From the NCBI RefSeq assembly GCF_045037415.1, contig NZ_CP173438.1: a stretch of 64,000 bases of DNA. One strand, given 5' to 3'. Position 1 is the stretch's first letter. Every line of letters begins with the position of its first letter. Source of the stretch: Escherichia coli (GTDB taxonomy: Bacteria > Pseudomonadota > Gammaproteobacteria > Enterobacterales > Enterobacteriaceae). The translations under genes were made by a program, and so were the position numbers. This document shows, piece after piece, positions 15,665-62,846 of this stretch. The notes beneath the pieces were generated by a model that had not been told where the DNA came from, made no database searches, and was given only the letters and a program-made list of their open reading frames with translations.

Positions 15665-16126
15665 ATGAGCCAGGACAGTAGAGTTTTCTTTCGTATATTC
15701 TTCGGTATCGGTCTGGTACTGATCCTCATTTCTGTTGTTATCTTTTATAACCAGTTCACCTATAGCAAAGACGCGATTCATACTGAAGGCGTCATTGTTG
15801 ATACCGTCTGGCACTCCAGTCATTCTCATCGCACGGGTAAAAATGGTTCGTGGTATCCCGTCGTTGCCTTTCGTCCGACGCCAGATTACACGCTAATTTT
15901 CAATTCGAGTATTGGCAGCGATTTTTATGAAGGCAGCGAAGGCGATAAAGTTAATGTTTATTATTCTCCAGGACATCCTGAAAAGGCTGAGATAAATAAC
16001 CCGTGGGTTAATTTTTTTAAATGGGGGTTTATCGGCATTATGGGCGTTATTTTTATCTCCGTCGGTTTATTAATCAGTATGCCCTCCTCTAAAAAGACAC
16101 GCAGGAAACGGAAGTCCCGCCCATGA
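15665..16126 (+). CDS. ymfA: Inner membrane protein YmfA (unknown function)
   Basis: [30 protein letters not shown]...; two hydrophobic segments; start at the MSQD methionine gives 153 aa. Confidence 0.8.
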
Positions 16127-53036: not shown

Positions 53037-56000
53037 ATGAAAAGAATGTTAATCAACGCAACTCAGCAGGAAGAGTTGCGCGTTGCCCTTGTAGATGGGC
53101 AGCGTCTGTATGACCTGGATATCGAAAGTCCAGGGCACGAGCAGAAAAAGGCAAACATCTACAAAGGTAAAATCACCCGCATTGAACCGAGTCTGGAAGC
53201 TGCTTTTGTTGATTACGGCGCTGAACGTCACGGTTTCCTCCCACTAAAAGAAATTGCCCGCGAATATTTCCCTGCTAACTACAGTGCTCATGGTCGTCCC
53301 AACATTAAAGATGTGTTGCGTGAAGGTCAGGAAGTCATTGTTCAGATCGATAAAGAAGAGCGCGGCAACAAAGGCGCGGCATTAACCACCTTTATCAGTC
53401 TGGCGGGTAGCTATCTGGTTCTGATGCCGAACAACCCGCGCGCGGGTGGTATTTCTCGTCGTATCGAAGGCGACGACCGTACCGAATTAAAAGAAGCACT
53501 GGCAAGCCTTGAACTGCCGGAAGGCATGGGGCTTATCGTGCGCACCGCTGGCGTCGGCAAATCTGCTGAGGCGCTGCAATGGGATTTAAGCTTCCGTCTG
53601 AAACACTGGGAAGCCATCAAAAAAGCCGCTGAAAGCCGCCCGGCTCCGTTCCTGATTCATCAGGAGAGCAACGTAATCGTTCGCGCATTCCGCGATTACT
53701 TACGCCAGGACATCGGCGAAATCCTTATCGATAACCCGAAAGTGCTCGAACTGGCACGTCAGCATATCGCTGCATTAGGCCGCCCGGATTTCAGCAGCAA
53801 AATCAAACTGTACACCGGCGAGATCCCGCTGTTCAGCCACTACCAGATCGAGTCGCAGATCGAGTCCGCCTTCCAGCGTGAAGTTCGTCTGCCATCCGGT
53901 GGTTCCATTGTTATCGACAGCACCGAAGCGTTAACGGCCATCGACATCAACTCCGCACGCGCGACCCGCGGCGGCGATATCGAAGAAACCGCGTTTAACA
54001 CCAACCTCGAAGCTGCCGATGAGATTGCTCGTCAGTTGCGCCTGCGTGACCTCGGCGGCCTGATTGTTATCGACTTCATCGACATGACGCCAGTACGCCA
54101 CCAGCGTGCGGTAGAAAACCGTCTGCGTGAAGCGGTGCGTCAGGACCGGGCGCGTATTCAAATCAGCCATATTTCTCGCTTTGGCCTGCTGGAAATGTCC
54201 CGTCAGCGCCTGAGCCCATCACTGGGTGAATCCAGCCATCACGTCTGCCCGCGCTGCTCCGGTACCGGTACCGTTCGTGACAACGAATCGCTGTCGCTCT
54301 CTATTCTGCGTCTGATCGAAGAAGAAGCGCTGAAAGAGAACACCCAGGAAGTTCACGCCATTGTTCCTGTGCCAATTGCTTCTTACCTGCTGAATGAAAA
54401 ACGTTCTGCGGTAAATGCGATTGAAACTCGTCAGGACGGCGTACGCTGTGTGATTGTGCCAAACGATCAGATGGAAACCCCGCACTACCATGTGCTGCGC
54501 GTGCGCAAAGGGGAAGAAACCCCAACCTTAAGCTACATGCTGCCGAAGCTGCATGAAGAAGCGATGGCGCTGCCGTCTGAAGAAGAGTTCGCTGAACGTA
54601 AGCGTCCGGAACAACCTGCGCTGGCAACCTTTGCCATGCCGGATGTGCCGCCAGCACCAACGCCAGCTGAACCTGCCGCGCCTGTCGTAGCCCCAGCACC
54701 TAAATCTGCACCGGCAACACCAGCCGCTCCTGCCCAACCTGGGCTGTTGAGCCGCTTCTTCGGCGCACTGAAAGCGCTGTTCAGCGGTGGTGAAGAAACC
54801 AAACCGTCCGAGCAACCAACACCGAAAGCAGAAGCGAAACCGGAACGTCAACAGGATCGTCGCAAGCCTCGTCAGAACAACCGCCGTGACCGTAATGAGC
54901 GCCGCGACCCTCGTAGTGAACGTACTGAAGGCAGCGATAATCGCGAAGAAAACCGTCGTAATCGTCGCCAGGCACAGCAGCAGACTGCCGAGACGCGTGA
55001 GAGCCGTCAGCAGGCAGAGGTAACGGAAAAAGCGCGTACCACCGACGAGCAGCAAACGCCGCGTCGTGAACGTAGCCGCCGCCGTAACGATGATAAACGT
55101 CAGGCGCAACAAGAAGTGAAGGCGCTGAATGTTGAAGAGCAATCTGTTCAGGAAACCGAACAGGAAGAACGTGTACGTCCGGTTCAGCCGCGTCGTAAAC
55201 AGCGTCAGCTCAATCAGAAAGTGCGTTACGAGCAAAGCGTAGCCGAAGAAGCGGTAGTCGCACCGGTGGTTGAAGAAACTGTCGCAGCCGAACCAATTGT
55301 TCAGGAAGCGGCAGCCCCACGCACAGAATTGGTGAAAGTTCCGCTGCCAGTCGTAGCGCAAACTGCACCAGAACAGCAAGAAGAGAACAATGCTGATAAC
55401 CGTGACAACGGTGGCATGCCGCGTCGTTCTCGCCGCTCGCCTCGTCACCTGCGCGTAAGTGGTCAGCGTCGTCGTCGCTATCGTGACGAGCGTTATCCAA
55501 CCCAGTCGCCAATGCCGTTGACCGTAGCGTGCGCGTCTCCGGAACTGGCCTCTGGCAAAGTCTGGATCCGCTATCCAATTGTACGTCCGCAAGATGTACA
55601 GGTTGAAGAGCAGCGCGAACAGGAAGAAGTACAAGTGCAGCCGATGGTGACTGAGGTCCCTGTCGCCGCCGCTGCCGAACCTGTTGTTAGCGCGCCAGTT
55701 GTTGAAGAAGTGGCTGAAGTCGTAGAAGCCCCCGTTCAGGTTGCCGAACCGCAACCGGAAGTGGTTGAAACGACGCATCCTGAAGTGATTGCTGCCGCGG
55801 TAACTGAACAGCCGCAGGTGATTACCGAGTCTGATGTTGCCGTAGCCCAGGAAGTTGCAGAACACGCAGAACCGGTGGTTGAACCGCAGGAAGAGACGGC
55901 AGATATTGAAGAAGTTGCCGAAACTGCTGAGGTTGTGGTTGCTGAACCTGAAGTTGTTGCTCAACCTGCCGCGCCAGTCGTCGCTGAAGTCACAGCAGAA

Positions 56001-56222
56001 GTTGAAACGGTAGCTGCGGTTGAACCTGAGGTCACCGTTGAGCATAACCACGCTACCGCGCCGATGACGCGCGCTCCGGCACCGGAATATGTTCCGGAAG
56101 CACCGCGTCACAGTGACTGGCAGCGCCCTACTTTTGCCTTCGAAGGTAAAGGTGCCGCAGGTGGTCATACGGCAACGCATCATGCATCTGCCGCTCCTGC
56201 GCGTCCGCAACCTGTTGAGTAA
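53037..56222 (+). CDS. rne: Ribonuclease E
   Basis: 1061-aa [34 protein letters not shown]...; catalytic N-terminal half then low-complexity Arg-rich and acidic C-terminal degradosome scaffold. Confidence 0.98.
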
Positions 56223-56241
56223 TAGTTAGCTCAAGTAATCA

Positions 56242-56272
56242 AGCCCTGGTAACTGCCAGGGCTTTTTTATTT
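56242..56272 (+). terminator. rne rho-independent terminator
   Basis: AGCCCTGG-TAACTG-CCAGGGCT hairpin followed by TTTTTTATTT, 20 nt after the rne stop. Confidence 0.8.
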
Positions 56273-56337
56273 CATCTTTGAGTCAACATATTAAAATTCA
56301 TCAAATGGCATCCTTGCTAACCAACAATACAAAATAG

Positions 56338-56375
56338 GCAAAAAAATGCCCGCTCCGGCGATCCCAGAGCGGGCA
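56338..56375 (-). terminator. flgL rho-independent terminator
   Basis: Minus-strand hairpin GCCCGCTCTGGGATCGCCGGAGCGGGC followed by ATTTTTTTGCC. Confidence 0.75.
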
Positions 56376-56416
56376 GACAAAACATACCCAGTTTCATGAT
56401 ATGTTTTAAAGCGAGC

Positions 56417-57370
56417 TTATTTGTTGAGCTGGAAGAGCGACAATCCCTGCATATCGGTAAATGCTTTATACGATGCCTGCAATGCCGTTTGCTGCATGAT
56501 GTAAGATGAAATAGTTGCATTCCAGTCCACATCAACCAGATCGCTCATCTGCTGCGTTTGCCCTAAAGCGCGATCGCTACCTAATGAATCCAGCGACTCC
56601 AGTTCGTTCAGTTGCGTGCCTAATTCCGCGCGAACAGTCAGCACATTGTTCAGCGAGTTTTTCAGTCCGCGGTTGGTTTTATCCAGTGCCGCAGCGGCGG
56701 TTTCTTTATCCGCTTCGCTATCCGCGACCGGCGTTTTCAGGGCTGCGATGGCGCTATCCAGCATGGCAAAAAGATTGGTTTCAGAAGCGCTACCGTCTGG
56801 TTCCGCTACCGCGTTGCTAGTAATACTGTCGAAAATTTTGTCGCCCGTATGTCCTATCACCATCGAACGCGAAGCATCGACCTGTTGTTTAATACTTTCT
56901 GCTCCGCCTTCGTATTTGCCATCCGCCTCGCTAAACGGTGCGGATTCTGTTTTATAACCGGCAAAAATGTAGCGCCCGTTACCGTCAGTGGTGTTCGCCA
57001 GATTCAGCAACTGGTCACGAAGCCCCTGAATATCCGTAGCCAGCGAGGCCCGGTCATCGTCACTCAAGGTGCCATTGCTGGCGTAGACAATTTTTTCCTG
57101 AGCATTCTGTATAGCGGTTGTGACCTGGCTAAGTACACTCTCTTCCAGTGACACTTTTTGAGTGGCGAAAGTACGCGCCAGCGTGTACTGGCTGTTTTGC
57201 GCCTGTGCCTGGGAGAGAACAACAGCTTGTGATGCAGCAATGGGATCATCTGAAGGGTTAACGACTCGCTTACCCGTCGACATCTGTTCGCCGTACTTCA
57301 TCCATTCTGCCTGAGAATTGGTGATGCCGCGCATGTTTTGCTGGTACATCATCTGGGTACTGAAACGCAT
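56417..57370 (-). CDS. flgL: Flagellar hook-filament junction protein 2 (HAP3)
   Basis: 317-aa ORF MRFSTQMMYQQNMRGITNSQAEWMKYGEQMSTGKRV... Confidence 0.96.
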   Translation of the reverse strand: MRFSTQMMYQQNMRGITNSQAEWMKYGEQMSTGKRVVNPSDDPIAASQAVVLSQAQAQNSQYTLARTFATQKVSLEESVLSQVTTAIQNAQEKIVYASNGTLSDDDRASLATDIQGLRDQLLNLANTTDGNGRYIFAGYKTESAPFSEADGKYEGGAESIKQQVDASRSMVIGHTGDKIFDSITSNAVAEPDGSASETNLFAMLDSAIAALKTPVADSEADKETAAAALDKTNRGLKNSLNNVLTVRAELGTQLNELESLDSLGSDRALGQTQQMSDLVDVDWNATISSYIMQQTALQASYKAFTDMQGLSLFQLNK

Positions 57371-57381
57371 TTTATCTCCCC

Positions 57382-59025
57382 TTAGCGAATGTTAATCAGC
57401 GCATCAAAAATCGCGTTTGCCGTCTGCAGAACCTGCGCATTCGCGAGGTAATACTGCTGAAAACGTTGCAGATTTCCGTACTCCTCATCGAGATTGACAC
57501 CGGAAATCGACTGCTGCTGATTGGAAAGCTGCGTCACCACATTACCTTGAGTGGTGCTACTGGTTTTCAACGTCGCGGTTTTATTACCGATATCACTCAC
57601 TAACGAGGCATAAGCGTCGTTAAAGGATTTCGCACCGCCCACCGTTTTACTGTTGCTTTGCAGATCGAGCAGGGCCTGACCGTTGCGGTTGTCGCTATCA
57701 CCCGCATCTTCTGCGCTCGCCATGGCGATTTTCGCTTCGTCGGTGATTAATACATCCATGTTGACGATGGCGTCACTTACCGGTTTCAGCGTGAAGCTGT
57801 CGTTAACGGCAGGCGTTCCTGTAAACGTCAACTCCAGACCATCAAATGCCACTTTACCGTTGGCATCCGGCGTCACCGTAAAAGTGGTATTGCTGGCAAG
57901 GCGGGTGACCTGCCACTGATTATTATCGAACGAGATTTTGTAATCTGTCGCCAGTACCGCGGAGGTATCAGTTACCGTTGCACCGATCGCAACGTCACCT
58001 TTGTTTTTCGTGTTTTGCAGAACCGCGGGCTTACCGATAGCAAAGAAATCTTCACCGGCATCGCCGTTAGCATCAAATCCGGCTTTGTGTTGGGTGTTGA
58101 AAGCCTCGGCAAATGCCAGCGCCAGTTGTCCAAGCGTATTACGCGTCTGGTCCAGATCCTGAGAACGGAATGTCAGAATGCCGCCCAGCGACCCGGTATT
58201 CAGTAATTTCTCCGGGATCTCAATATTGCCTGCCGTCCCATCAACATAAGCGACAGTCGTACGAGAAGGGTCGGCGCTGGAAGGAACTGCCGCAAGTTGC
58301 CGCGCCGTACTTCCCTGAACCAGTGAGTAGCCATTGGCCATCGTGATGTTATAAGTGCCACCATCCTGAACACTGACTTCTACGCCAACAATCTGGTTTA
58401 ATTCGCTCACCAGTTGATCGCGTTGATCCAGCAGATTGTTAGGTGACGCCCCTGCCCCCACGCCTGTCAGGCGGGAGATCTGATCGTTCAGGCTGGCGAT
58501 TTGTTTAGCGTAATTGTTGATCTGATCAACACTGGCACCTATCGCGATATTGACCTGTTTGTCCTGGTCGCGCAGATATTGATCGGTGGTTTTAAACTGA
58601 TTCACCAACCCTTCTGATTTCCCAATCAGCGCCTGGCGCGCTGCCGGATCTTCCGCGTTACTCACCAGCGTTTGCAGGCTGGTGAAGAAATCCTGCATCT
58701 GTGTTGCCAGCGAAGAGGTACTGGTGGAGAGCATATTGTCGATTTTCGACATCTGCTCATAGCGGGCAGTCAGGCCGCTACTTTGCGTCTGCGCCGCACG
58801 TAACTGGTTGGTAATAAACGCATCATACTCACGCTGCACACCAGAAACGTAGACGCCATTGCCAACCCAGCCGCCAGCGCCCAACGTGCTATTGGCCTGC
58901 GCCATAATAGTGGTTTGGCGGGTATATCCGGCAACGTTATAGCTGGAGATATTATTACTTGCCGTATTTAACGCCGCCTGGGCCGCGTTCAGTCCGCTCA
59001 TGGCGTTATTGATCAAGCTGGACAT
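57382..59025 (-). CDS. flgK: Flagellar hook-filament junction protein 1 (HAP1)
   Basis: 547-aa ORF MSSLINNAMSGLNAAQAALNTASNNISSYNVAGYTRQTT... Confidence 0.96.
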   Translation of the reverse strand: MSSLINNAMSGLNAAQAALNTASNNISSYNVAGYTRQTTIMAQANSTLGAGGWVGNGVYVSGVQREYDAFITNQLRAAQTQSSGLTARYEQMSKIDNMLSTSTSSLATQMQDFFTSLQTLVSNAEDPAARQALIGKSEGLVNQFKTTDQYLRDQDKQVNIAIGASVDQINNYAKQIASLNDQISRLTGVGAGASPNNLLDQRDQLVSELNQIVGVEVSVQDGGTYNITMANGYSLVQGSTARQLAAVPSSADPSRTTVAYVDGTAGNIEIPEKLLNTGSLGGILTFRSQDLDQTRNTLGQLALAFAEAFNTQHKAGFDANGDAGEDFFAIGKPAVLQNTKNKGDVAIGATVTDTSAVLATDYKISFDNNQWQVTRLASNTTFTVTPDANGKVAFDGLELTFTGTPAVNDSFTLKPVSDAIVNMDVLITDEAKIAMASAEDAGDSDNRNGQALLDLQSNSKTVGGAKSFNDAYASLVSDIGNKTATLKTSSTTQGNVVTQLSNQQQSISGVNLDEEYGNLQRFQQYYLANAQVLQTANAIFDALINIR

Positions 59026-59058
59026 GGAGGTTCCTTATAAGCCTTCAATTACAGAGTA

Positions 59059-59085
59059 TTATCGGCAGCGACCCGCCGGACTTGA
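59059..59085 (-). promoter_or_regulatory. Candidate sigma-28 (FliA) class 3 promoter for flgKL
   Basis: Minus-strand TCAAGTCC-N11-GCCGATAA: the -10 is an exact GCCGATAA match, the -35 is a weak match to TAAAGTTT; about 35 nt upstream of the flgK ATG. Confidence 0.5.
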
Positions 59086-59090
59086 GTTAT

Positions 59091-60032
59091 TCAGAACAGA
59101 TTATCAATGTTCATGCTGTAGGTTTTGCTCACCTTGTCGCTTATCGATTTCATCTGCTGAATCATGTTGGTGAGTTTGCGGGCATAGTGAGGATCGGTGG
59201 CATAGCCCGCGTCCTGTAGGGCCTGCGCCCCCTGCTCCGCACTCGCGGCGGTCGTCACGGCGGCGTAGCGCGGGTTACGCGTTAACAGCCCAACGTAATC
59301 CGACAATGCTTCCAGATACGAGCTGTAGACCCGAAACTTCGCTTTTACTTTCTTCGCTTCGCCATTTTCATATTCAGTCGTGGTGATTTCAGTGACTGGC
59401 CCTTTCCAGTTGCCAGAGGCTTTGACACCAAACAGGTTATAGCTCGGCTCGCCGTTTTCACGGCGGATTTGCCGTTGTCCCCAGCCAGATTCCAGCGCCG
59501 CCTGAGCGAGGATCAAATGATGTGGCACACCACTTTGCTGGCTTGCCAGTTGGGCGGGCAGCGAGAGTTGCGCGAGGAATGCTTTACTGTCACCCGGCAG
59601 CGAATCATCGTAGTTACGTGGTACGGCCTTTTGCACCAGCTGCGAAAGCGTCTGATTTTGATAACGCACCACGGTTTCGAGCGGGAATTTTATCGGTGCT
59701 GCTGGCGTGGACTCCTCTGGCAATGGTTGTTCTGGCGTCATCTGTTTAACCATCATCTCTGCCAGCCCCAGACCTTTGCCCGCCGTCATCTGTTGGGCAA
59801 TCTGCTGGTCATACATACTGGTATACAGGCGAGTGTGCTCGCTGCTGAACAGGCCATCTTTTGGTAAAGCGTCGCGCATGCTTTTCAACATCATCTGCAC
59901 GAACATCCCTTCCACCTGGCGGGCCACCGGACGGATATTTGCCGCTGGATCTTCGCCCGCTTTCGCCTTTAGTTCGTTGAGTGATTGCGCATCCCAGGCC
60001 GCACTTGCCAGTAGTTTGCTGTCGCTGATCAT
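59091..60032 (-). CDS. flgJ: Flagellar rod assembly protein / peptidoglycan hydrolase
   Basis: [26 protein letters not shown]... with C-terminal muramidase domain; start at MISDSK gives 313 aa. Confidence 0.94.
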   Translation of the reverse strand: MISDSKLLASAAWDAQSLNELKAKAGEDPAANIRPVARQVEGMFVQMMLKSMRDALPKDGLFSSEHTRLYTSMYDQQIAQQMTAGKGLGLAEMMVKQMTPEQPLPEESTPAAPIKFPLETVVRYQNQTLSQLVQKAVPRNYDDSLPGDSKAFLAQLSLPAQLASQQSGVPHHLILAQAALESGWGQRQIRRENGEPSYNLFGVKASGNWKGPVTEITTTEYENGEAKKVKAKFRVYSSYLEALSDYVGLLTRNPRYAAVTTAASAEQGAQALQDAGYATDPHYARKLTNMIQQMKSISDKVSKTYSMNIDNLF

Positions 60033-61129
60033 CAGATGATTTCCAGTTTTGCCCGCAGACATCCCGCACTTTGCATTGATTGCAGTATGGACATCAGATC
60101 CATCGGCGTAGCGCCCAGCGCATTGAGCGCACGCACCACGTTATTGAGGCTGGCGCTGGAACGTACGCTTTGCAGCGAACCGCCGCTCTGGCGTAAATCG
60201 ATCTGCGTTTGTGGAGTAACCACAGTCTGCCCACCACCAAACGGTGTATCTGGCTGGCTGACATTGGCCTGACGATTAACTGTTACTGAGAGATTCCCCT
60301 GCGCTACCGCGCAGCTGTCGAGGGTCACTTCGCGATTCATCACCACCGAACCAGTGCGCGAGTTAATCACTACTTTAGCGTCCTGCGGGGTGACATTAAC
60401 CTGCATATTCTGGATATCGGCAAGGAAACGGACCTGGGAACTGTTGCCACTTGGTACGCGCACCTGAATAGTCCGCGCATCTAACGCGGTGGCGCTGCCA
60501 TATCCACGCACGCGGTTGATGGTGTCAGCGATTTGCTGCGCCATACTGAAATCTTCGTCGTTAAGTTGCAAATTAAGGGTATTCCCGACGCCAAACTGGC
60601 TGGGCAATTCACGTTCAATAACCGCACCATTGGTGATCCGTCCACCGTTCAGTTGATTCACCTGAACACTGCTACCGCCAGCGGAGGCCCCTGCGCCGCC
60701 AACCAGAATATTGCCCTGCGCCAGCGCATACACCTGACTGTCAACGCCCTTAAGCGGTGTCATCAATAACGTACCGCCACGCAGACTTTTGGCATTTCCC
60801 ATGGAAGAAACCACCACGTCAATGGTTTGCCCCTGACGTCCAAACGGTGGAAGTGACGCTGTCACCATAACCGCAGCGACGTTTTTTAGCTGCATATTAG
60901 TGCCCGTCGGAACGGTAATTCCCAGCTGTGAGAGCATGTTATTAAGCGTTTGTGTGGTAAACGGCGTCTGAGTTGTCTGGTCACCTGTACCATCAAGCCC
61001 CACCACCAGGCCATAGCCAATCAGTGAGTTTTGCCTTACCCCCTGAACACTGGTGAGATCGCGAATACGCTCAGCCTGAGCCGCCGTGGTAACCAGTAAA
61101 AGAATTAATGCAGAGAGAAATTTAATCAC
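60032..61129 (-). CDS. flgI: Flagellar P-ring protein
   Basis: [49 protein letters not shown]...; GTG start gives 365 aa. Confidence 0.95.
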
Positions 61130-61892: not shown

Positions 61893-62693
<801 letters not shown>

Positions 62694-62720
62694 TTAGTGA
62701 CAAAGTGCATATGTCTTCTT

Positions 62721-62754
<34 letters not shown>

Positions 62755-62846
62755 AAGAGCTCGCAAAATCGATAAATTGCGATTGCCCCCATAGACCCGA
62801 TAAACTTGCGCATAGGGCAACTTATACTTGTCATGTATCCTTTCAA

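Follow-up and report, generated by a model that had tools for sequence, protein, structure and literature searches.

The flagellar genes flgJ, flgK and flgL lie in this order on the minus strand of the window, the whole 64,000-nt stretch of E. coli DNA that was analyzed (contig NZ_CP173438.1, assembly GCF_045037415.1). The feature described here is read on the same strand and lies in the gap between flgJ and flgK. The strain is a non-K-12 E. coli; the 351 nt surrounding the site are 99.1% identical to MG1655, and this stretch is matched in 5425 of 5426 complete E. coli genomes. The gene assignments were made with NCBIfam models, and RefSeq annotation of identical DNA agrees with them for flgJ, flgK and flgL (Table 1). 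The open reading frame of flgJ spans 59091-60062, and the gene as annotated by RefSeq, 942 nt long, has the extent given in the table. The rne gene (53037-56222) is on the plus strand, convergent with flgKL. The flgJ stop codon, TGA at 59093-59091, is separated from the flgK ATG (59025-59023) by a gap of 65 nt. In coding-strand order the elements are the TGA, ATAAC, TCAAGTCC, GGCGGGTCGCT, GCCGATAA, TACTCT, a G, a leader bearing AAGGAA, and the ATG. The two octamers are thus intergenic and co-oriented with flgK, a late flagellar gene.

Table 1. Features of the flgJ-flgK-flgL region, in the order in which they are read on the minus strand (coordinates are positions in the window)
Feature	Coordinates	Strand	Basis
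flgJ, last gene of the class 2 flgB operon	59091..60032	minus	NCBIfam TIGR02541, 436.7 bits
Sigma-28 -35 element TCAAGTCC	59078..59085	minus	Sequence; part of the published flgKL FliA motif; conserved TCAAG
11-nt spacer GGCGGGTCGCT	59067..59077	minus	Sequence; length fixed, bases variable across loci
Sigma-28 -10 element GCCGATAA, 8/8 match, 'GC' extended -10 plus CGATAA core	59059..59066	minus	Sequence; consensus in PMC2859248 and PMC12784957
Predicted transcription start, G (inferred)	59052	minus	RegulonDB flgKp TSS 1137574, evidence code HIPP
Rest of the 27-nt flgK leader, Shine-Dalgarno AAGGAA at 59036-59031	59026..59051	minus	Sequence
flgK CDS, hook-filament junction protein 1, 547 aa	57382..59025	minus	TIGR02492, 340.6 bits; RefSeq
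flgL CDS, hook-filament junction protein 3, 317 aa, second gene of the operon	56417..57370	minus	TIGR02550, 350.8 bits
flgL 3' UTR and intrinsic terminator, end of the flgKL transcript	56340..56416	minus	Terminator scan, sequence

The two blocks have the sequence and the geometry of a sigma-28 (FliA) promoter, both observed directly in the window. The -10 octamer matches the GCCGATAA consensus at all eight positions. A sequence-only reading of the window had pointed to an exact -10 octamer about 35 nt before the flgK ATG; the octamer, read from 59066 to 59059, is there with 33 nt between it and the ATG, and the span 59059-59085 assigned to the feature is exact. The -35 octamer TCAAGTCC agrees with the consensus TAAAGTTT at 5 of 8 positions, keeping T1, A3, A4, G5 and T6, and a match of at least 5/8 is expected by chance with a probability of 0.027. 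The spacer between the octamers is exactly 11 nt; at a spacing of 10 or 12 nt the -35 match falls to 2/8. An exact octamer combined with a -35 match of at least 5/8 would arise on the coding strand of the flgJ-flgK gap with a chance of ~2.5e-5. At the aer sigma-28 promoter, single substitutions at T1, A3 or G5 of the -35 element reduce the activity from 223 to 23, 26 and 50 units, respectively, a loss of 4.5- to 10-fold with the G5 change at 4.5-fold (PMC2859248). The C at position 2 of the flgK -35 element is a variant found also in the E. coli FliA sites of fliL, modA, ybhK and evgS.

By itself the octamer is weak evidence, since the window holds seven copies of GCCGATAA against 2.24 expected, a number that none of 100 shuffles reached. 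The surplus could reflect codon usage. The copies start at positions 16029, 19057, 20925, 43111, 43983, 45751 and 59059. Six of the seven are inside genes, and the flgK copy is the only one that lies between genes and faces a flagellar gene. Two of the seven copies have, across an 11-nt spacer, a -35 element that agrees at 5 or more of the 8 positions; five of the six intragenic ones have no -35 match at that distance. The surplus would suit the view that the octamer before flgK arose by chance and has no role as a promoter, as would the six intragenic copies, which are without a -35 element or a ChIP peak and indicate that the octamer is insufficient to make a promoter. Against this view, the flgK copy has a correct -35 element at the correct spacing; the binding and conservation data described below bear on it further.

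The site was also scored with a FliA weight matrix, a check that the sequence-only reading had proposed. The matrix was built from 51 published E. coli FliA sites (Fitzgerald 2014, PMC4183435 Table 2) with flgKL left out. In this leave-one-out scan the flgK site scores 18.3 bits, second among the ~128,000 positions of the window and mid-range among real FliA sites. The top match in the window, at 23 bits, is TAAAAATA-N11-GCCGATAA at 16028-16055 on the minus strand. It is antisense within ymfA (DUF3592), its -35 element is without G5, and the identical 28-mer is present in K-12 MG1655, for which Fitzgerald 2014 reported no FliA ChIP-seq peak there. Because this higher-scoring match has no reported peak, the matrix score alone is no proof of function. 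Elsewhere in the window, the flgF-flgG spacer (~62676-62846, minus strand) gave a weak peak of 6.7 in genomic SELEX with sigma-28 holoenzyme (Shimada 2017); it holds no recognizable sigma-28 promoter, since the best FliA-matrix match nearby reaches 8.5 bits.

Binding of FliA to this very sequence has been published. Fitzgerald 2014 (PMC4183435) gives the 28-mer TCAAGTCCGGCGGGTCGCTGCCGATAAT as the FliA ChIP-seq site of flgKL, with a score 47-fold above threshold that is close to the 48 of flgMN. The RegulonDB promoter flgKp (ECK120009892) has the same sequence, which is reproduced in Table S3 of PMC4183435. The identity of the window's sequence with this bound site is a direct observation: its 68-nt flgJ-flgK intergenic sequence is shared without a mismatch by 4931 of 5424 E. 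coli genomes, K-12 records (~1138310-1138377) among them. Data from K-12 therefore transfer directly to the window, and the statements on FliA occupancy, FliA-dependent expression and read-through made here come from the literature on the identical K-12 sequence. ChIP-chip placed a sigma-F region, SigF_10, at 1137178-1137740, with an RNA polymerase region present and a sigma-70 region absent (Cho et al. 2014). In genomic SELEX with the purified sigma-28 holoenzyme alone, the flgJ>flgK spacer showed a peak of 27.2, which was called high-level; the sole peak reported above it was the highest one, 46-fold, at rpoF (Shimada et al. 2017). In vitro transcription of flgK by the sigma-28 holoenzyme is also cited in that study (Shimada 2017). 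Expression of flgK decreased 5.5-fold in a fliA deletion and increased 2.2-fold 5 min after induction of FliA (Zhao et al. 2007).

Conservation was followed across genomes with an anchor that excludes the promoter, a degenerate motif for the FlgK N-terminal coding sequence M-S-G-L-N-A-A-Q. One genome per species was scanned, 81 loci truly encoding FlgK were kept, and the 250 nt upstream of each were scored with the matrix. The pattern observed is a pair of conserved boxes held at a constant distance. TCAAG-N14-CCGATAA is present in 67 of the 81 upstream regions, spanning more than 20 genera, and in nearly all 81 the best match is TCAAGT[T/C][T/C]-N11-GCCGATAA or a sequence close to it. Among the genera are Escherichia, Salmonella, Citrobacter, Phytobacter, Trabulsiella, Pluralibacter and Cedecea, as well as Serratia, Rahnella, Yersinia, Proteus, Hafnia, Ewingella, Erwinia and others. 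The TCAAG box occurs in 72/81 orthologous loci with 1.5-2.0 bits per position; the -10 octamer is exact in 57/81, and ACCGATAA takes its place in 13/81. When the loci are aligned on the motif, both boxes carry 1.5-2.0 bits per position, whereas the spacer and the flanks carry ~0-0.5. The spacer is always 11 nt in the motif-bearing loci, with 63 distinct sequences among the 81. A score of at least 17 bits is reached by 75% of the flgK upstream regions versus 0.29% of 250-nt control windows taken from these loci, and several of the control windows that reach it resemble other real FliA promoters. This result agrees with a published statement of good conservation in 24 gamma-proteobacterial genera for the well-characterized flagellar FliA promoters, fliL excepted (preprint 10.1101/188474).

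The -35 element had been described in the sequence-only reading as a weak match. That stands as far as its 5/8 agreement with TAAAGTTT goes, but it understates the element, which keeps T1, A3 and G5 and whose TCAAG is nearly invariant in Enterobacterales. The C at position 2 is itself nearly invariant at flgK across the Enterobacterales; Pandoraea has TCAAT. The CC at positions 7-8 is clade-specific, being confined to Escherichia, Salmonella, most Citrobacter and one Erwinia, while most other genera have TT or TC there. The -35 box of the clade containing E. coli is thus TCAAGTCC, and that of most other genera is TCAAGTTT or TCAAGTTC. The C directly before the -35 box is kept in 88% of the loci. 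The flgK ATG follows the -10 octamer at 32-33 nt in Escherichia, Salmonella and most Citrobacter, at ~39-43 nt in other Enterobacteriaceae, and at ~70-100 nt in Serratia, Rahnella, Yersinia and Proteus.

Diversity within E. coli is too low to inform much, because 91% of the genomes are identical across the gap; in the three variant genomes that were fetched, all differences are in the spacer or just beyond the boxes. One of the 5426 complete genomes (NIPH17_0020, NZ_AP024560.1; locus 1501-1749) has a deletion that fuses the 3' end of flgJ to flgK. The whole flgK promoter and the flgK start are gone, and flgK is annotated as a pseudogene that lacks its N-terminus.

The comparative and binding data decide against a chance origin of the octamer. 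In more than 20 genera both boxes and the spacer length are kept and the spacer bases vary, and FliA occupancy of the exact sequence has been published in vivo and in vitro. A chance octamer is already refuted by these data and has next to no probability left.

A different account would be that the two blocks are kept for a reason that has nothing to do with sigma-28, such as coding for the C-terminus of FlgJ, folding of the read-through RNA, or a promoter for sigma-70. It draws on the position of the -35 box, which in Enterobacteriaceae begins just 5-6 nt past the flgJ stop. However, the box is downstream of the stop in 74 of the 81 loci, the exceptions being artefacts of a crude ORF caller, and in several genera it is 10-91 nt away. 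Coding constraint was rejected as the source of the -35 conservation and fails to explain it, because the box is outside the flgJ coding sequence in those 74 loci. An RNA leader structure was rejected as well: the class 3 leader and the read-through junction fold no better than shuffled sequences (z = -0.23 and +0.06, respectively), and an Rfam scan found no family match in 56200-59300, which includes the flgL 3' UTR, at E values up to 0.1. The sigma-70 candidate was rejected on two grounds, as the flgJ-flgK gap yielded no sigma-70-like promoter and the ChIP-chip data list no sigma-70 region for it. These findings already contradict a constraint unrelated to sigma-28, and it is exceedingly improbable.

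The element is therefore best read as flgKp, the class 3 FliA (sigma-28) promoter of E. coli flgKL, with a probability of about 97%. The promoter is real and functional, and it is already known and catalogued. It belongs to the textbook flagellar hierarchy, in which the junction proteins are made late, after FlgM export, and independently of FlhDC. It also exemplifies a real regulatory element that could be recognized at the right coordinates from the letters of the DNA.

Transcription is predicted to begin with the G at 59052. The start given by RegulonDB for flgKp, 1137574, carries the evidence 'human inference of promoter position' only (through Table S3 of PMC4183435), and it corresponds to this G, the 7th nt past the octamer, inside the 6-8 nt that the sequence-only reading had expected. 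Of the seven E. coli sigma-28 promoters with initiation-mapping evidence, six have an octamer that ends at -7 and one has an octamer that ends at -6. Applied to flgK, the -7 spacing gives the same G. In a dRNA-seq study, starts were located 18-22 bp downstream of the motif center at most well-characterized flagellar FliA promoters, and 18-23 bp from it at 38 of 52 FliA sites (preprint 10.1101/188474); the flgK motif center, 1137556, is 18 bp from the start at 1137574. The portions of the Cappable-seq supplements that were available (PMC4782308) have no entry near 1138352 or 1137574, and those of the SMRT-Cappable-seq supplements (PMC6131387) have none near either position or for flgK; the strains used in both were poorly motile. 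No single-nucleotide experimental start for flgK was found in the sources accessible to search, and in these the exact start rests on inference.

On flgKp, the sigma-28 RNA polymerase binds the -35 element TCAAGTCC through region 4 of sigma and the -10 element GCCGATAA through regions 2 and 3. Within the latter, 'GC' serves as an extended -10 motif and the core is CGATAA; the two octamers are held 11 nt apart. In a Pseudomonas complex, GCCGATAA is placed at -15 to -8 with 'GC' as the extended -10 motif (PMC12784957). Structural work also indicates that weak contacts between sigma-4 and the -35 element are offset by the beta-prime zinc-binding domain, which contacts the spacer backbone in a sequence-nonspecific manner. 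Such a contact fits a spacer of conserved length and free sequence. Initiation at the predicted start would then produce an flgKL mRNA with a 27-nt leader that ends at the terminator past flgL. FlgM keeps FliA inactive until the finished hook-basal body exports FlgM (PMC4183435), so flgKp fires late.

The flgKL genes are transcribed earlier as well, when transcripts started at the FlhDC-dependent flgB promoter read through into them, and they are thus under dual class 2 and class 3 control. A terminator scan of 59026-59090, from flgJ to flgK, found no terminator-like site, and because no terminator separates the two genes, read-through also feeds flgKL. RT-PCR across the flgJ-flgK junction showed read-through from the flgB operon that is lost in an flhD deletion (PMC4183435). 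Overexpression of FliA in an flhD deletion brings flgK back to the wild-type level or above (PMC4183435). With the published FliA site, these two results bear out the earlier suggestion that a class 3 promoter lets flgKL be expressed separately from the class 2 flgB operon.

The transcript ends at a strong intrinsic terminator ~77 nt past the flgL stop (56419-56417), with a stem at 56375-56347 and a T-run at 56346-56340. The flgL 3' UTR with this terminator matches FlgO in position and size. FlgO is an Hfq-binding sRNA, seen as a ~75-nt doublet, that is processed from the flgL 3' UTR and whose level is strongly fliA-dependent (PMC10578931). The 3' UTR of the flgKL mRNA would thus be the source of FlgO, and flgKp would drive the transcript from which this sRNA is cut.

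How much flgKp contributes in ordinary growth is a separate matter. In a fliA deletion of motile MG1655, flgK RNA changed from 318 to 138, with no significance flag, and it was concluded that FliA adds little to dual-regulated transcripts under the conditions used (Fitzgerald 2014, PMC4183435). The modest RNA-seq change can be attributed to class 2 read-through, since this also supplies flgK. It is possible, with the odds somewhat against it, that flgKp is a real FliA-bound promoter but a minor source of flgKL mRNA in ordinary growth, most FlgK and FlgL being made through class 2 read-through. The class 3 promoter would then serve mainly in swarming, in regrowth of broken filaments, in states of high FliA activity and in FlgO output. 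This would refine the assignment to flgKp, not replace it. Besides the unflagged RNA change, it is favored by the more than 100-fold reduction of dual-regulated genes in an flhDC deletion (PMC4183435), by reports that Salmonella requires the class 3 promoters of flgKL and fliDST for swarming and rapid repair (cited in PMC4183435), and by the weaker -35 element of the E. coli clade relative to TCAAGTTT and TCAAGTTC in most other genera. Evidence for a larger contribution comes from the 5.5-fold drop of flgK in the fliA deletion (Zhao 2007), from the return of flgK to at least the wild-type level when FliA alone is overexpressed (PMC4183435), from a ChIP occupancy like that of flgMN (PMC4183435), and from the strong fliA dependence of FlgO (PMC10578931).

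An evolutionary extension, which is speculative and unlikely though not far-fetched, would treat the flgK promoter as an ancient conserved -35 subtype, with C-TCAAG for TAAAG in nearly all Enterobacterales. In Escherichia, Salmonella and Citrobacter, the change from TT to CC and the shortening of the octamer-to-ATG distance from ~80-100 to ~33 nt might then reflect an evolved weakening toward class 2 dependence, with the class 3 promoter kept for high-FliA states and for FlgO.

Among known systems the closest is flgKp of E. coli K-12 (ECK120009892). The whole flgJ-flgK intergenic sequence, including TCAAGTCCGGCGGGTCGCTGCCGATAAT, is identical to that of the window, and the neighbors are the same: flgJ upstream, flgKL downstream and rne convergent. 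There are no promoter differences. The flgK class 3 promoter of Salmonella enterica, attributed to Kutsukake and Ide 1995 and Wozniak et al. 2010 (cited in PMC4183435), has the same TCAAGTCC, 11 nt and GCCGATAA (subsp. arizonae and diarizonae). It is also 5 nt past the flgJ stop, with 32 nt from the octamer to the ATG versus 33 in E. coli. The spacer differs, being ACGTCGTAGCT or ACACAGTAGCT in Salmonella and GGCGGGTCGCT in E. coli, and the base after the octamer is C in Salmonella and T in E. coli. The canonical E. coli promoters of tar, flgM and tsr (TAAAGTTT-N11-GCCGATAA) share with flgK the -10 octamer, the 11-nt spacer and the predicted distance from the -10 element to the start. The flgK -35 element departs from their consensus with C at position 2 and CC at positions 7-8, and the matrix score of flgK is 18.3 bits versus 22.7-27.7 bits for tsr, flgM and tar.
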